Positions 29,799 through 51,412 of a stretch of DNA of 64,000 nucleotides are shown here, in pieces. Location: positions 69,821-133,820 of the forward strand of contig CACYZF010000004.1 in NCBI GenBank assembly GCA_902778895.1, in the 5' to 3' direction. The stretch comes from an uncultured bacterium. Lineage in GTDB: Bacteria; Verrucomicrobiota; Lentisphaeria; Victivallales; UBA1829. A program made the position numbers and the translations under genes. The notes beneath the pieces are model-generated. The model ran no database searches. It was not told the origin of the DNA and saw only the letters and a list, made by a program, of their open reading frames with translations. Positions within the stretch are counted from its first letter, which is position 1, and each line of letters starts with the position of its first letter.

Positions 29799-29875
29799 GC
29801 TCCCGTAGCTCAACTGGATAGAGCGTCTGACTACGGATCAGAAGGTTGGGGGTTCAAATCCCTCCGGGTGCACCA
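29799..29875 (+). tRNA. tRNA-Arg (anticodon ACG)
   Basis: Hand-folded cloverleaf. D arm is AGCTCAACTGGATAGAGC. Anticodon stem TCTGA/TCAGA with loop CTACGGA. T arm GGGGGTTCAAATCCCTC. Encoded CCA. One T3:T70 mismatch in the acceptor stem. Confidence 0.9.
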
Positions 29876-29880
29876 ATTTG
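29824..29880 (+). repeat. attL-side direct repeat (3' 52 nt of tRNA-Arg plus 5 nt)
   Basis: 52/57 identical to 51356-51412. Confidence 0.8.
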
Positions 29881-29890
29881 CACCTCAATT

Positions 29891-29940
29891 TCACCCGTTT
29901 TCATGTTCCATGATAGCGGGTGATTTTTTGTGTTTCGTGA
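29891..29940 (+). terminator. intrinsic terminator after tRNA-Arg (island-borne)
   Basis: TCACCCG (29891-29897) pairs with CGGGTGA (29927-29933), followed by T6. Confidence 0.5.
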
Positions 29941-29945
29941 CACGA

Positions 29946-29970
29946 ATTACGGAAAATTTACGGAAAAATT
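29946..29970. repeat. tandem TTACGGAAAA boxes, left arm of an inverted pair
   Basis: ATTACGGAAAATTTACGGAAAAATT has two boxes 11 bp apart. The inverted partner is at 30112-30136. Confidence 0.7.
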
Positions 29971-30111
29971 ATGCGACGCGTTGAGCGTAAAATCACATGT
30001 TTCCGGTTTCTTCCTGTCTGAATGAACCCTTTTCCGGAGATTCTCTGTCCTACGCCATCCGATTGCTGCGTAGTTCCCTTATCGACCGCATCGGGACGAC
30101 ACTTTCATCCG

Positions 30112-30136
30112 GATTTCCGTAATTTTTCCGTAATCT
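30112..30136. repeat. tandem TTACGGAAA boxes, right arm (inverted)
   Basis: GATTTCCGTAATTTTTCCGTAATC is the reverse complement of the left-arm motif. Confidence 0.7.
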
Positions 30137-30174
30137 GAACTGGACCTGAGGTGAAAGGCTGATGTAATCCAAGC

Positions 30175-48131: not shown

Positions 48132-49802
48132 TTACCACGTGAACATTCTTTCAAACCACGTTTTCTGTTCGTTTTCCTGGACTTTGAGATTTTCCGCATT
48201 GACCCGTTCGGAAACCTCCTGCTCCAGCGTGGCGTTTTCTTCGGACGGACGCGTCTCCATCTTAAAGTTCTGATCCATCAGTTCCGGCGACACCAGGATC
48301 AGCATCTGGAGTTCTTCGCCCTTGTCTTCTTCGGACGACGCGAACCAGTTGATAACCGGAATATGCCGGAGGAACGCATAACCGGACGGTCCTTCATGAG
48401 AAAAAGTCAGCTCCTTCTGTCCCGCGATGACGGCTGTTTTTCCGAGCGGACAGATCAGCGTCGTCTTGGTTTTGCTCTTGCTCTGGACATAGTCGTCGCC
48501 GTCCCGGACCGGAGGCAGACTCCGTTCCAGATCCAGATTCAGCTTGACCGTATTGTCTTCCTGAAGGAATGCCTGGGCCTTGTATTTCAGTCCGTACTCG
48601 ATCTCCTTCATGTCGGCGGTATCCCGTCCGTACACCTTGACCTGGCGCGTGCCGCCGTTTTCATACGTGGATTCGTCGCCGTTGTTCGTGAGCGTGATGT
48701 GTCCCGCGTCGCGGAAATCGGCGATCCCGTTCTGTCCGAAGAACACCAGAGCCCCCTTCAGATTCGTTTCGAGCGTAATCGAGCCGCCTGCATGCTGGCT
48801 GCCATGGCTGTCGATCGCGTCCTTTGCGCCGCCGTACAGCGCCTTGAACCAGCCAACGACGTCCCACGTCAGGACCGTGCCGTCCGCATTGGCGTTTCCA
48901 AGACGTTCCAGCTGTTTTCTAGTCACGCCGACGAAGACGACTCCGAGGTCGACCTGGGATGGCACGATTCTCAAGTCGGTTTTGAGGCTGGCATTGTTGC
49001 CGTTCCACTCCGGATCCAGCCAGCGTTGCGCCGAGAGGATGGATTCGACCGTTTTAATGCCGTCTTCGGAGTACAGATATCCACGCACGGTCAGGACGGT
49101 CCCGGTAAGGTTCATGGACAGCTTGCCGGGTGCTTCCGGACCGGATTGTTCCTCCACGGGGAATCCGGCGTCCGTCAGCTGTTTTTTCAAATCGGCGATC
49201 AGTTTCGTATCCGGGACAAAAGCAACGTAGCTGTTGCATCTGCTTTCATAGGACTGCAGGATGCGGCGGAAATAATCCCAGTGGACGGGCTGCGTAATGA
49301 TGCCGCGGAGAACAAGCCCCCCGTCGTACATCTGCAGGGTGACTTCCGGAAGCTCCTCCAGAAGACGACTCATTTCCTGATACGTCTGAAGCGTCGAGTT
49401 ATATACCGTGATATGAAAACTCTTCTCGATGCCTCCGGCATGGACCGTGATGACGGCACGGCCGGGCGAAACCCCGGACACCTCGAACGTGTTGGCGTTG
49501 ACATGCTCGATCTTGACGTTGGACGAATCCGATTTGCAGGATTCGATGGTGAACGGCATGCTCAGTACGCGTTTTTCCCCGACGGTGATGGAGATCTGTT
49601 CCTGCATCGGATCGTTCCCGTTTTCGTTCTGCGAACCGAGCGCCTGAGTGATCGCCTTCACGATATCTTCCTGAGATACCTGAACTTCGTTTGCCTGGGA
49701 CTGACCCGGGGCGCCGGACGGCTGCTGAGCCGTCTGGCCCATGCCGGGAAGTGTCAGAAGAATGCCTGCCAGCAGAAGGAATGCTGTCGTAATTCTTTTC
49801 AT
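48132..49802 (-). CDS. cpaC: secretin (CpaC/RcpA type)
   Basis: Signal peptide. C-terminal secretin block GKTAVIAGQKELTFSHEGPSGYAFLRHIPVINWFASS...LILVSPELM. Confidence 0.85.
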   Translation of the reverse strand: MKRITTAFLLLAGILLTLPGMGQTAQQPSGAPGQSQANEVQVSQEDIVKAITQALGSQNENGNDPMQEQISITVGEKRVLSMPFTIESCKSDSSNVKIEHVNANTFEVSGVSPGRAVITVHAGGIEKSFHITVYNSTLQTYQEMSRLLEELPEVTLQMYDGGLVLRGIITQPVHWDYFRRILQSYESRCNSYVAFVPDTKLIADLKKQLTDAGFPVEEQSGPEAPGKLSMNLTGTVLTVRGYLYSEDGIKTVESILSAQRWLDPEWNGNNASLKTDLRIVPSQVDLGVVFVGVTRKQLERLGNANADGTVLTWDVVGWFKALYGGAKDAIDSHGSQHAGGSITLETNLKGALVFFGQNGIADFRDAGHITLTNNGDESTYENGGTRQVKVYGRDTADMKEIEYGLKYKAQAFLQEDNTVKLNLDLERSLPPVRDGDDYVQSKSKTKTTLICPLGKTAVIAGQKELTFSHEGPSGYAFLRHIPVINWFASSEEDKGEELQMLILVSPELMDQNFKMETRPSEENATLEQEVSERVNAENLKVQENEQKTWFERMFTW

Positions 49803-49815
49803 GGTTTACCGCCGT

Positions 49816-50634
49816 TTATTTCGTGGAGTTTGCAGTTTCGTTCGAGAGCAGCGCCGTATCCAGGTCGGAACGCACGGCTTCGAACGTTTTCGAGTTCACG
49901 GCCCCGATTTCCGAACGATTCCGTGCGGACGGATCGTTTCTTCTGCGGAGAATCGGGAAAAGTTCCGCTTCATGCTGTGCCGCCAGCAGGATTGTCGCCT
50001 GCCGGGGAGGAAGGGATACGTAGATCGTGGCGGTCGCACTGCCCGGCTCGCGGAAAAGGCCGTTGCTGTTATCGAGCCCGATCACCTCAATGCAGGGGAA
50101 CAGGATAACGGTTTCGCGTTCCTCCTTCACGTCCGCCTTCATAGCCGCTTCCGGATCCTTGAGCAGCTCTTCCGAGGTCGCTTTCGGGTGTTCGACGTTG
50201 GTGTGTGCATAAAGTGCCGCGATCGCTATTTCGTCCTGCGGACGCAGCATTTTTACAAGGGTCGGATCGGAAAACGTCACCGGGACCAGCCATTGGCCGG
50301 TGGTGACGCAGTCCGCCAGGGAGATGTTCAGCTGAATGTCATCGAACATGACGTAGCTGCCGCGTTTGATCGCACGCGGGATCTTCTGGCCGTAGGTCAG
50401 GCTGACGCTGTCCCAGAGAATCGCGGATTGCGGGACCGCCGATTCCGGCAGGTTTTTGAACGAGCACGCGCCCGGCATGAGCTCTTCTCCCGCTTCAAGA
50501 TCGCGGGCTGCGACCACAACGGATATCTGTGGCTCCTGTTCGGTGTCCTGGTTTTTGACAAGGACGTTGCTCACCATGTAAACGGCTGCAAGTCCCAGGA
50601 GGACGGCTACGATCAGCGGAATGACATTCTTCAT
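49816..50634 (-). CDS. cpaB: CpaB/RcpC-like pilus assembly protein (SAF domain)
   Basis: N-terminal anchor IPLIVAVLLGLAAVYMV. VVVAARDLEAGEEL SAF-type motif. GAGG RBS. Confidence 0.8.
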   Translation of the reverse strand: MKNVIPLIVAVLLGLAAVYMVSNVLVKNQDTEQEPQISVVVAARDLEAGEELMPGACSFKNLPESAVPQSAILWDSVSLTYGQKIPRAIKRGSYVMFDDIQLNISLADCVTTGQWLVPVTFSDPTLVKMLRPQDEIAIAALYAHTNVEHPKATSEELLKDPEAAMKADVKEERETVILFPCIEVIGLDNSNGLFREPGSATATIYVSLPPRQATILLAAQHEAELFPILRRRNDPSARNRSEIGAVNSKTFEAVRSDLDTALLSNETANSTK

Positions 50635-50798
50635 TGAGATTACCTCATTTCACCTTATATTGAAGTGTTTTGTCTGAATCCGGTCCGGAATGTCCCCGGA
50701 ACAGGCCGGGAGCATGTCTTTGTTTCGGCTATCCTGCGCAGATTCCAGCTCTTTTCCTGATATCAAATATGCGCAAAAAGTCTACTTGACTAATATCT

Positions 50799-50827
50799 AA
50801 TATACATCTTTTTTATCTTTTTTTCAA
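50799..50827 (-). promoter_or_regulatory. candidate promoter of the cpaB-to-HExxH operon
   Basis: Minus strand TTGAAA-N17-TATATT, about 165 nt upstream of the cpaB ATG. Confidence 0.35.
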
Positions 50828-50969
50828 CCCCGGACGTGTTTTTTTAAATAAATAGTTACTTGCATCTCTAGAAAGCAAAAATACTCGGCTCGTGTAAACG
50901 TCTGGCTGATGTCACGAGAAGCAGGCGCTCCACTGTCCGGAATACAATAGTGAATTCACTACTGTCCGG

Positions 50970-51251
50970 TTAAAATATAGGAGCATAATTTGCAAATAGA
51001 TCGAGTTGTTCAGGAGCATTCCAGTCGGGAGGTTTCTTCAGGGTATCTCTGTTCAGATTGAGGACTTCGACCAGAGCGAAGTCTGGCATGAGCGTATCGC
51101 GGAGGCGGTTTGCCAGTTCCGTGATGCCGTATTTGCATTTGCCAGTGAACTTGATGTAGGAGAGCAACAGGTAGAGGATGAGCGCTACCCAGATTTGTGT
51201 CATGACGGCGTTCTTTGAGGTGCCGAGGAAGCTTTTGATTTTGAGGTTCTG
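50970..51251 (-). pseudogene. 3'-terminal fragment of an IS4-family DDE transposase gene
   Basis: The frame opens right after a stop at 51252-51254. It reads QNLKIKSFLGTSKNAVMTQIWVALILYLLLSYI..., which resembles the conserved C terminus of IS4-family transposases. No upstream catalytic region is present. Confidence 0.65.
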
Positions 51252-51355
51252 CTAATCCGTGATGATACTATATCATGATTTCTGACGATTGCAAGGCAAA
51301 AAGTCCCTAAAATGTCCCTAAAAACCACGTTCTTTCTCTATTTTGTACACAATAA

Positions 51356-51412
51356 CGTCTGACTACGGATCAGAAGGTTTTTGGTTCAAATCCCTCCTGG
51401 TGCACCATTTTG
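51356..51412 (+). repeat. attR-side direct repeat (displaced, degenerate 3' half of tRNA-Arg)
   Basis: 52/57 identical to 29824-29880. There is no 5' half, and the T stem is disrupted (GGG to TTT). Confidence 0.8.

Follow-up and report, generated by a model that had tools for sequence, protein, structure and literature searches.

A probable fusion of two tyrosine-integrase elements, now without an integrase, at a tRNA-Arg gene of a Lentisphaerota bacterium

The 21.6 kb between an intact tRNA-Arg(ACG) gene and a 57-nt partial repeat of it, which lie within a 64-kb stretch of DNA (the window) from a rumen Victivallales bacterium, quite likely represent a degenerate, non-mobile composite island that originated from tyrosine-integrase integration. 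Two elements have probably fused to form the island, the most likely reading because its left and right arms belong to different specificity types (TTACGGAAAA and GTCCCTAAAA, respectively). Lacking an integrase and carrying mismatched arms, it is predicted to be unable to excise. Our comparison set consisted of metagenome contigs of rumen Victivallales, whose loci carry L numbers.

A tRNA-Arg gene and a partial copy of it bound the island

ARAGORN and Rfam agree on a single tRNA-Arg(ACG) at 29799-29875 on the plus strand (Rfam 65.9 bits), and a promoter scan places its own promoter-like site at 29738-29765. The last 52 nt of the gene and the 5 nt that follow (29824-29880, plus strand; the attL core) recur as a direct repeat at 51356-51412 on the same strand (the decayed attR core), with 52 of 57 nucleotides identical. 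In the distal copy, GGG reads TTT, the acceptor 3′ strand has a T for a G, and a T replaces the A after the CCA; pairing is lost at three positions of the T stem and one of the acceptor stem. The distal copy begins precisely inside the anticodon stem, has neither the 5′ half nor a promoter, and gives no tRNA call with either program. These results bear out the tRNA and the repeat as a first-pass annotation had described them. The 25-nt 3′ core occurs at two sites only, the attL and attR copies (0 expected by shuffles).

Each core is followed by a hairpin and T-run on the plus strand, T1 at 29891-29929 behind the intact tRNA (fold ΔG -20.0) and T2 at 51421-51461 behind the distal copy (fold ΔG -18.8). 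A simple terminator scanner missed both; folding recovered them with a z of -5.2 each, so that the two terminators proposed earlier are real. Alignments and sequences place the T1 type behind the tRNA-Arg cores of L004, L051, L070, L064, L073 and L053, and T2 is unique to the window's lineage, as judged from blast searches and the sequences of L092, L025 and L023. The earlier reading of T2 as the native tRNA terminator gains no support from these loci. The recurrence of T1 behind the cores of all related loci would be explained most simply if the elements carry T1 in their attP. The tRNA-Arg would stay functional because each integrating element supplies its own version of the tRNA 3′ end together with a terminator.

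The retained tRNA has a U3:U70 acceptor mismatch, which had been taken as the sign of a chimeric gene. This did not hold up: because an identical tRNA with T3 and T70 is found in L004, L051 and L070, and T70 in every partial core copy (the distal copy of the window, L064, L073 and L053), the mismatch is a clade trait and gives no evidence for a chimera.

Both ends match one family of tRNA-targeting elements

Upon comparison with the metagenome contigs, we found that both island ends match one family of tRNA-targeting tyrosine-integrase elements, relatives of which frequently occupy tRNA-Arg and tRNA-Thr in rumen Victivallales. In its complete form, an element starts with the tRNA core, a terminator and a left arm composed of two phased 10-mers and an inverted pair, continues with HTH_17, a D5/DUF5906 primase-helicase, cargo genes and the integrase, and ends with a right arm that contains two of the same 10-mers and a second core copy. 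In L073 the order is HTH_17, DUF5906/D5_N, RT, Fic, an integrase of 434-436 aa (PF00589 at 1.6e-21), arm, partial tRNA-Arg, terminator and chromosomal genes. Integrase genes also stand at the right ends of L064 and L045, and L020/L021 carry Prim-Pol/DUF5906, HTH_17 and PF00589.

On the attL side, motif counts and homologous arms define a TTACGGAAAA-type left arm (29936-30160), in which two TTACGGAAAA 10-mers phased 11 nt apart (29947-29966) are mirrored by the same pair in inverted orientation (30114-30133). These 10-mers are putative arm-type integrase sites: TTACGGAAA has 4-5 matches against 0.26 expected, in a layout of two direct and two inverted copies. Homologous arms, alike in layout and flanking sequence, lie behind tRNA-Thr in L023 and L020/L021, and the layout also occurs behind tRNA-Arg in integrase-bearing elements. 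Inward of the arm follow a minus-strand gene for a 428-aa DUF4143/AAA_14 ATPase (30175-31461; PF13635 2.3e-29, PF13173 8.9e-13), four tandem 23-nt repeats (TTTTATAnCTTTGCGC...; 31522-31613) that are a candidate operator or iteron-like site, and a plus-strand gene for a small HTH_17-like (AlpA/Xis-type) DNA-binding protein (31942-32331, likely ATG 32002). The match of this ORF to HTH_17 is weak (E 3.8e-4, 21 bits, below the cut-off of 27); L073, which bears an integrase, encodes an HTH_17 protein to which it is 39.6% identical (E 8e-7). Last comes a minus-strand DUF932 stub that holds only the C-terminal 34 residues (32443-32544; tblastn with the L023 DUF932, 88%, E 7e-16). L023 6991-7206 aligns with window 32316-32541, and the stub marks the inner border at which the left remnant is cut short.

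On the attR side, a GTCCCTAAAA-type right arm (51250-51355) contains two phased GTCCCTAAAA 10-mers at 51303-51323, as located by motif search, and window positions 51252-51411 are 92.5% identical to L064 and L073 and 91% to L045. In an alignment with the right ends of these three loci, their integrase ATG lies about 27 nt to the left of the point where the window match starts (51250). In the window, the position of the integrase gene is taken by a minus-strand stub of an IS4-family transposase that abuts the arm and retains only the C-terminal ~93 residues (50970-51250; NCBIfam NF033592 positions 299-331/332, E 3e-6; 41% to ISGme2-like IS4 transposases by tblastn). An orphan minus-strand promoter-like site within the arm (51294-51267, promoter scan) faces the integrase gene in intact relatives. 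This arrangement points to integrase loss at the attR end. We detected no recombinase by Pfam among all major ORFs of the window or by six-frame Pfam in the non-Tad stretches 31400-33100 and 50600-51420, and the L073 and L020 integrases had no match at E<=1 when searched by tblastn against the whole 64-kb window. The earlier proposal of an immobilised integrative island, devoid of a recombinase and eroded at attR, is thus upheld. Of the cargo listed with it, the ATPase, the 23-nt repeats, the IS4 stub and the Tad locus, which is complete, stand, and the HTH match remains weak.

The two arms are of different specificity types

The same annotation had regarded the island as one element, a view that the arm motifs speak against in that those at attL and attR belong to different element types. 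The GTCCCTAAAA motif serves as left arm in L051, L063, L070 and L053 and as right arm in the window, L064, L073 and L045; TCGTGGAAAA is the right arm of L053 and the left arm of L064 and, in decayed form, of L004. Likewise, the two pairs, ~190-210 nt apart, carry one and the same motif in L093 and in L026, an unrelated phage contig. Moreover, the 10-mer motifs co-vary with the integrase N-terminus: integrases of the GTCCCT and TCGTGG types share 47% identity over the first 60 residues, compared with 82-92% over the remainder. All of this weighs against a single ~21.6-kb element with Tad cargo that merely lost its integrase and in which differing 10-mers are normal, one set being bound, for example, by the integrase and the other by an accessory protein. 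The partly seen members of the family are, in addition, small, with primase, HTH_17 and defence-like cargo, and none of them carries a Tad locus. That reading does draw support from the lone direct-repeat pair, for a pattern search found no third core copy and no further arm motifs between the two repeats, and from the reconstructed attP of the window, whose pair-to-pair distance of 175 nt (calculated from coordinates) fits the family geometry (175-177 nt in L053/L064). It is further favored by the lack of a TTACGGAAAA-type right arm to compare with: because no such arm was retrieved among the contigs searched, the presence of the same motif on both arms of this type is extrapolated from what the two remaining types show and from L093 and L026, which are more distant. 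On balance, we regard a single element as rather unlikely.

In L053 and L064, the order integrase, right arm, core, terminator and then a left arm of a different type identifies the junction of a heterotypic tandem array at one tRNA-Arg. For the island of the window, we envision a similar origin. Tyrosine-integrase elements would have integrated site-specifically at the 3′ end of tRNA-Arg, such that two elements of different type sat in tandem, and a later deletion of the inner junction would have fused them. The first element would have left the TTACGGAAAA left arm, the DUF4143 ATPase, the 23-nt repeats, the HTH_17-like gene and the DUF932 stub, and the second the GTCCCTAAAA right arm. The integrase gene was probably removed by a deletion whose other end lies inside an IS4 copy, and a 17.5-kb Tad/Flp pilus locus would have become enclosed as cargo or by secondary acquisition.

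The island encloses a complete Tad/Flp locus

Pfam identifies this 17.5-kb locus as complete. It opens with two tandem plus-strand genes for Flp-type pilins of 83 and 82 aa (33095-33607), seen in the ORF translations and as a 237-nt direct repeat of 89% identity. The first half proper (33679-40534, plus strand), with a gene order as in L087 and L089-L091, encodes a prepilin peptidase (33679-34236), TadE-like (34250-34915), TadG-like (34918-36663) and second TadE-like (36644-37345) proteins, a product without assigned family (37342-37788), a T2SSE ATPase (37785-38861) and a Ser/Thr kinase (38858-39757), followed on the minus strand by another gene whose product has no assigned family (39707-40534). 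The second half (40722-50634, minus strand) comprises genes for an FHA protein (40722-43112), a 492-aa YscD-like protein (43112-44590), two TadC/TadB-like proteins (44605-45510 and 45512-46408), an FHA-fused CpaF ATPase (46415-48199), a secretin (48132-49802) and CpaB/SAF (49816-50634). It shares its operon with L082-L086, and the homology stops exactly at the CpaB start (50635/6).

The Flp pilins, prepilin peptidase, TadE/G pseudopilins, CpaF-type ATPase, TadB/C, secretin and CpaB are those of the Tad/Flp system, known as the "widespread colonization island". At the domain level, the locus also resembles Kil of Myxococcus, a Tad-like apparatus (PMC8460266), which shares the ATPase with N-terminal FHA fusion and several FHA proteins in the locus. 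The window locus differs from both in its extra T2SSE ATPase, its Ser/Thr kinase and in that no TadZ/CpaE was detected in it.

Composition and synteny

In 1-kb windows, GC is 0.608 ± 0.035 in the flanks and 0.552 ± 0.045 in the island (Mann-Whitney p = 1e-5), a contrast that the first-pass annotation had seen in sampled lines. The earlier description holds only in part, as the contrast stems mainly from the element remnants, where GC is 0.43-0.49 (0.486 at 29881-33094 and 0.431 at 50637-51355) against 0.59-0.62 in the flanks. Composition gives no sign that the Tad locus is foreign: with a GC of 0.567 against 0.586 in the right flank and a tetranucleotide correlation with the flanks of 0.945, the locus is compositionally near-native, and its GC is like that of Tad loci and their flanks in relatives.

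On the left, synteny with each of the 13 related genomes extends no further than 29635, short of the tRNA, and right synteny stops at ~51580, inside the 3′ end of an MFS gene, in all MFS-side relatives. Because both flanks are synteny breakpoints, the empty site proposed earlier as a check was found on neither side among available relatives. Insertion into a once-continuous site is therefore something we infer, which counts against our preferred explanation. The breakpoints would fit a resident chromosomal Tad locus to either side of which deletions and recombination between related elements at different tRNA sites brought the scars of separate integrations, in which case the repeats delimit no once-mobile unit. 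Consistent with such rearrangement, the final codons of the MFS gene have given way to other sequence in the window, a 5.9-kb conserved block beside a 562-aa gene is missing from it, and in L018 the MFS block adjoins the genes of window 1-7700. The near-native composition fits as well, as do the Tad loci of relatives, which are surrounded by ordinary chromosomal genes and lie away from any integrase or att site, and the scars beside ordinary genes in L070 and L004 (see below). By contrast, the distal core in direct orientation, with a right arm before it and non-element DNA after it, has the geometry of integration, and trapping resident DNA between the two sites would take several more events. 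The CpaB homologues, furthermore, are patchy (97, 82, 81, 80, 77 and 67%) compared with the proteins of the flanks, for which identity is 95-88% in all but one of 13 species and 78% in that one, which fits an accessory locus. We consider a resident Tad locus improbable. That the distal repeat is a decayed second tandem tRNA-Arg gene unrelated to mobile DNA, as its own terminator T2 could suggest, is effectively refuted by the 104 nt upstream of it, which match the arms beside integrase genes on three independent metagenome contigs at 92.5% identity, as well as by its start inside the anticodon stem and the absence of any trace of a 5′ half or promoter.

Relation to known integrative elements

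Islands integrated at tRNA genes by tyrosine recombinases of the lambda/P4 type are the paradigm for pathogenicity islands. Like them, the island begins with an intact tRNA and closes with a direct repeat of the 3′ part of that gene, has an element-borne tRNA 3′ end that keeps the gene functional, and shows arm-type repeats on the sides of the core; an anchored island is likewise what remains after IS insertion and deletion. Unlike them, it lacks the integrase, has arms of different specificity types and yielded no empty site.

P4-like satellites and other primase-helicase elements combine an integrase, AlpA/HTH_17, a D5-type primase-helicase and variable defence cargo. The intact relatives L073 and L020/L021 match this plan with HTH_17, DUF5906/D5_N or Prim-Pol, a tyrosine integrase and a tRNA target, and L073 adds RT and Fic genes as cargo. 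The likeness is one of gene content; no capsid-hijacking genes were seen, the host, a Lentisphaerota bacterium, differs from that of P4, and in the window only the HTH_17-like gene and the DUF932 stub are left, with neither primase nor integrase.

Integrative elements can also accrete in tandem at one att site, with partial tRNA copies between them. The junctions in L053 and L064 belong to such arrays at one tRNA-Arg; the window has no inner junction, and an array would there have collapsed into one interval. Elsewhere, arm scars are followed by ordinary genes, namely sugar-nucleotide genes in L070 and methyltransferases in L004, and scars thus persist after rearrangement.

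A duplicated tRNA-Arg core marks both ends of the island

Judged from its sequence, the island at tRNA-Arg is degenerate, immobilised and probably composite, and it is of a known kind. The intact tRNA-Arg(ACG) that the first-pass annotation had placed at its boundary (29799-29875) was found by ARAGORN, with Rfam concurring at 65.9 bits. A repeat search returned the proposed 57-nt direct repeat (29824-29880 and 51356-51412; 52/57 identical, 91%), and reading the copies side by side verified the differences claimed between them, that is GGG to TTT in the 5' strand of the T stem, G to T at acceptor 67 and A to T after CCA. 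Within the 64 kb, the 25-nt 3' core is confined to these two copies, with 0 expected by shuffles. As stated, a 5' half is missing from the distal copy, which also does not fold into a tRNA. Each copy is indeed followed by a terminator made of a hairpin and a T-run, the proximal one at 29891-29929 (-20.0 kcal/mol, z about -5.2) and the distal one at 51421-51461 (-18.8 kcal/mol, z about -5.2); a simple terminator scan picked up neither hairpin. Inside the island we found no additional core copies or arm motifs, and Rfam reported no structured RNA other than tRNA in 29-52 kb. The inverted repeats I3 and I4, which link 29850-29879 and 51383-51411 to 55346-55375, reflect only the similarity of the tRNA-Arg T-arm and acceptor to a minus-strand tRNA-Ser(GGA) and are not structural features.

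Two readings of the tRNA end did not hold. The U3:U70 mismatch had been taken as the mark of a chimeric tRNA. All the tRNA-Arg copies that we saw have it, partial ones included, so that it does not point to a chimera; it is a lineage trait. We also dropped the notion that the proximal terminator is native, which had drawn on its presence in L004, a contig of a related rumen genome. At the element junctions of the related contigs L053, L064 and L073, this terminator stands behind partial cores, and in L004 the terminator itself has a decayed TCGTGGAAAA arm behind it.

The integrase was probably lost at the right end

The earlier proposal that the integrase disappeared through erosion of the attR end is well supported, both by homology of the right arm to those of L073, L064 and L045 and by an IS4 stub that replaces the gene. 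Window positions 51252-51411 are 91-92.5% identical to these three contigs, and a tyrosine integrase adjoins the homologous right arm in L073, L064, L045 and L053. In the right-arm alignment (A2), similarity to the window sets in outside the integrase gene, about 27 nt from its ATG. Left of there, a truncated IS4 gene takes the integrase's place in the window; it is an IS4-family C-terminal stub on the minus strand (50970-51250; NCBIfam), and its match is confined to the final ~33 positions of the profile. This stub is now faced by a promoter-like site on the minus strand (51294-51267) that is also conserved in L064 and L073. No window ORF matched PF00589 or another recombinase family, six-frame Pfam searches of 31400-33100 and 50600-51420 gave no integrase remnants, and no hit at E<=1 was obtained when the L073 and L020 integrases were compared with the entire window by tblastn. 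Because the integrase is absent here and present beside homologous right arms, the window holds a remnant and not a functional member of the group. The Tad-bearing island is probably dead and immobilised, and its excision is not to be expected.

Related elements carry interchangeable arm motifs

Phased 10-mer pairs, which we regard as putative arm sites, lie on both arms of the window. The left arm, with pairs at 29947-29966 and 30114-30133, has the same layout as the rumen metagenome contig L023, in which tRNA-Thr(TGT) is followed by a terminator, AATTACGGAAAAATTACGGAAAAA..TGCGAC and an inverted copy about 170 nt on. Beyond its inverted pair, L023 continues with a stretch that aligns with window 32316-32541 at 74% identity, and then a DUF932 gene, of which the window retains the final 34 codons only (88% identity, E 7e-16). 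TTACGGAAA occurs 5 times in the window against 0.26 expected. In two further contigs, L020 and L021, the same arm after tRNA-Thr leads into Prim-Pol/DUF5906 and HTH_17 genes, with a tyrosine integrase at the far end.

The second phased pair, GTCCCTAAAA twice, stands at 51303-51323, upstream of the distal core, and a metagenome scan with this pair yielded eight loci similar to the window. The intact tRNA-Arg element of L073 runs from HTH_17 through a 131-aa ORF, DUF5906/D5_N, reverse transcriptase and Fic to the integrase (PF00589, 1.6e-21) and the right arm, after which come a 52-nt partial tRNA-Arg, a terminator, and ABC-transporter and glycosyl-hydrolase genes. The RVT_1 reverse transcriptase and the Fic-domain protein between its primase and integrase genes (L073 2193-5076) look like defence or toxin cargo. 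In L070 (2300-6459) a tRNA-Arg arm scar directly precedes epimerase, GHMP kinase and UDP-glucose dehydrogenase genes, and in L004 (1-3830) such a scar directly precedes methyltransferase genes; ordinary-looking genes right behind the scars indicate that scars at tRNA-Arg outlive the elements that left them.

The arms of these relatives come in several arrangements. L051, L063 and L070 have an intact tRNA-Arg, a terminator and a left arm of GTCCCTAAAA twice with an inverted pair 222 nt away. L053 reads integrase, TCGTGG(C/A)AAAA twice, core, terminator, GTCCCTAAAA twice, and L064 reads integrase, GTCCCTAAAA twice, core, terminator, TCGTGGAAAA twice, while L004 and L073 bear decayed TCGTGG-like left arms behind the terminator. 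From these arrangements it follows that TCGTGGAAAA and GTCCCTAAAA each occur on both arms, a comparison that covers these two types, the retrieved TTACGGAAAA-type members of the family being left arms only. It also follows that heterotypic tandem arrays are common at tRNA-Arg. Since the attP-like junctions of L053 and L064 are heterotypic, they represent tandem junctions and not circles. TTACGGAAAA, TCGTGGAAAA and GTCCCTAAAA are three interchangeable 10-mers in otherwise homologous arms, and the TTACGGAAAA type is also found at tRNA-Thr.

Co-variation links the three arm 10-mers to the N-terminal ~60 residues of the integrase. Comparing the GTCCCT-type integrase of L073 with the TCGTGG-type integrase of L053, the first 60 residues are 47% identical, as opposed to 82-92% in every subsequent block of 60 residues, as far as alignment position 420. 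Such a pattern would be expected if an N-terminal arm-binding domain of the integrase co-evolves with the 10-mers. This co-variation, like the heterotypic arrays, is a variation on well-known lambda/P4-type biology. These modular arm and integrase types, seen in the relatives, are the main interest of the island. They may appeal to researchers working on integrase specificity or on mobile-element turnover in gut Lentisphaerota, as may, as a side result, the heterotypic tandem arrays at a single tRNA.

Two IMG/VR contigs extend the comparison. L093 encodes a more distant integrase relative (49% identity) and has two pairs of one and the same motif (AAATGTTC..) before the integrase start, spaced 188 nt apart. 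The sole IMG/VR match to the window arm motif is L026 (IMGVR_UViG_3300028797_000402), an unrelated low-GC phage contig with TTACGGAAAA pairs twice, 208 nt apart, beside an integrase. Its exact TTACGGAAAAATTACGGAAA pair, at 1818-1837 and 2026-2044, lies right behind the integrase stop codon and could reflect convergence or a shared arm-binding domain.

In the window itself, a left arm of the TTACGGAAAA type is paired with a right arm of the GTCCCTAAAA type. This mismatch is most simply read as the trace of two elements that once stood in tandem; the inner junction and both integrases would later have been lost.

The island retains stubs of element genes

Behind the left arm, a DUF4143/AAA_14 ATPase gene (30175-31461, minus strand; Pfam and NCBIfam) and a weak HTH_17-like ORF (31942-32331, plus strand; Pfam) diverge from four tandem 23-nt repeats found by repeat search (TTTTATAnCTTTGCGC.., 31522-31613). 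These repeats run head-to-tail between the two genes, with a weaker copy at 31939-31961, and the related elements showed no array homologous to them. The set of integrase, HTH_17 (AlpA-like) and D5/DUF5906 primase-helicase is reduced in the window to the weak HTH_17-like gene, and neither the Prim-Pol protein of L020 nor the DUF5906 protein of L073 gave a significant tblastn match there. The GC contrast reported for the island is real overall (p = 1e-5), but it is carried by the element remnants, at 0.43-0.49.

A composite IS4 transposon around the Tad locus was rejected: the two borders have no common repeat of at least 10 nt and the left side has no DDE match. No complete IS4 DDE transposase with terminal inverted repeats was found, nor any repeat shared across the Tad locus.

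A probably accessory Tad locus lies within the att interval

The Tad locus, positioned within the att interval, has both Flp pilins and a dedicated prepilin peptidase, as a Tad/Flp system requires. On the plus strand are two Flp pilin genes (33095-33346 and 33359-33607; 82-83 aa, hydrophobic N-terminal segment), the prepilin peptidase (33679-34236; Peptidase_A24, 2.5e-13), TadE/TadG/TadE-like genes with TadE and Tad domains (34250-37345), the locus's second T2SSE ATPase (37785-38861; Pfam) and a Ser/Thr kinase (38858-39757; Pfam). On the minus strand are an FHA protein (40722-43112), a weakly YscD-like 492-aa protein (43112-44590), TadC/TadB as two T2SSF genes (44605-45510 and 45512-46408), a CpaF ATPase with an N-terminal FHA fusion (46415-48199), a secretin (48132-49802) and CpaB with a SAF domain (49816-50634), all by Pfam. 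The machinery thus comprises CpaF/TadA (T2SSE, 3.7e-63), TadB/TadC, secretin, CpaB/RcpC and TadE/G pseudopilins; no ORF of the locus matched the TadZ/CpaE localisation ATPase in Pfam, and three ORFs have no assigned family. The tandem Flp pilin genes, of 83 and 82 aa, form a 237-nt direct repeat of 89% identity. The relatives L089 and L091 have one such gene, and the same-species Logan contigs L087 and L088 break within the duplication.

In the contact-killing Tad-like Kil system of Myxococcus, as described in PMC8460266, the ATPase is fused to FHA and there are many proteins with FHA domains. Judged from its genes alone, the island's locus recalls Kil through its own FHA-ATPase fusion and its several FHA proteins. 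The Kil-like extras, at 37785-48199, are FHA-CpaF, the second T2SSE ATPase, the Ser/Thr kinase, the FHA protein and the YscD-like protein.

In relatives, the Tad operon has the same structure and sits amid ordinary genes. Homology to it begins past the genes for a Na/Pi cotransporter and for a response regulator and reaches precisely to the CpaB start, where an oxidoreductase or efflux system is the neighbour; no tRNA or integrase lies near the relatives' Tad loci. Composition is weak evidence for a foreign origin of the window's locus and was set aside as proof: its GC is 0.567, compared with 0.557-0.584 for the relatives' Tad loci and 0.568-0.591 for their flanks, and its tetranucleotide signature correlates with that of the window flanks at 0.945. 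CpaB homologues are 97, 82, 81, 80, 77 and 67% identical, and flank proteins 95-88% in 12/13 species and 78% in the last. The faster drop of CpaB identity suggests that Tad is an accessory locus.

One joint reading would tie these observations together, although taken whole we consider it rather improbable. The tRNA-Arg of rumen Victivallales would be a hotspot for small primase-bearing integrative elements. Their diversity would come from exchanging the arm 10-mers (TTACGGAAAA, TCGTGGAAAA, GTCCCTAAAA) as matched sets along with the N-terminal domain of the integrase, and this would allow several types to stack in heterotypic tandem arrays; the window would be a collapsed array, locked as a chimera with a fixed 17.5-kb Kil-like Tad machine. 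If true, entire pilus or contact-killing systems could be captured by small elements or moved by them from one member of the Lentisphaerota to another. Apart from this reading, the importance of the present case is mostly one of annotation.

Synteny breaks on both sides of the tRNA-Arg unit

Searching genome contigs with the 562-aa protein of the left flank retrieved 13 rumen Victivallales/Lentisphaeria MAGs (78-95% aa identity). Nucleotide homology ends at about 29635 in all 13, 165 nt before the tRNA, and in each of them (L003-L015) a POTRA/FtsQ-like gene, with further genes, adjoins the 562-aa gene. About half share a block of roughly 5.9 kb with thioredoxin-reductase-like, GntR and DUF6159 genes. 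Neither the POTRA/FtsQ-like gene nor the genes of this block occur anywhere in the window's 64 kb, which argues that the 5' side of the tRNA-Arg module (29635-29700) is also a deletion or rearrangement junction. L004 alone among the 13 has a tRNA-Arg within 10 kb, 5.9 kb away; this tRNA is identical, comes with a conserved promoter and proximal terminator, and is followed by methyltransferase genes.

On the right, MFS protein homologues led to 12 relative contigs (L016-L025 and L092), in which homology is limited to the MFS gene and its neighbour and no tRNA-Arg or core copy lies beyond the MFS gene. In all relatives this homology stops at about 51580, ~22 nt within the 3' end of the window MFS gene, so that the right synteny break falls inside that gene and not at the att repeat. 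At 51557-51580 the last ~7 codons of the gene are unlike those of all relatives, and its product has 432 aa, compared with 424-427 aa in the closest.

No collinear empty site was found in the 13 left-flank genomes, the 12 right-flank contigs or the eight att-matching metagenome contigs. Because the unit 29635-51580 is flanked by two synteny breakpoints, the empty-site comparison is uninformative, and synteny around tRNA-Arg is unreliable in this Victivallales clade. In L018 (JGI Ga0310786_10000182; 4946-13452 against window 2-7703), about 1.5 kb separates the MFS block from the genes with which the window opens, which implies that the two genomes differ by a rearrangement of about 44 kb.
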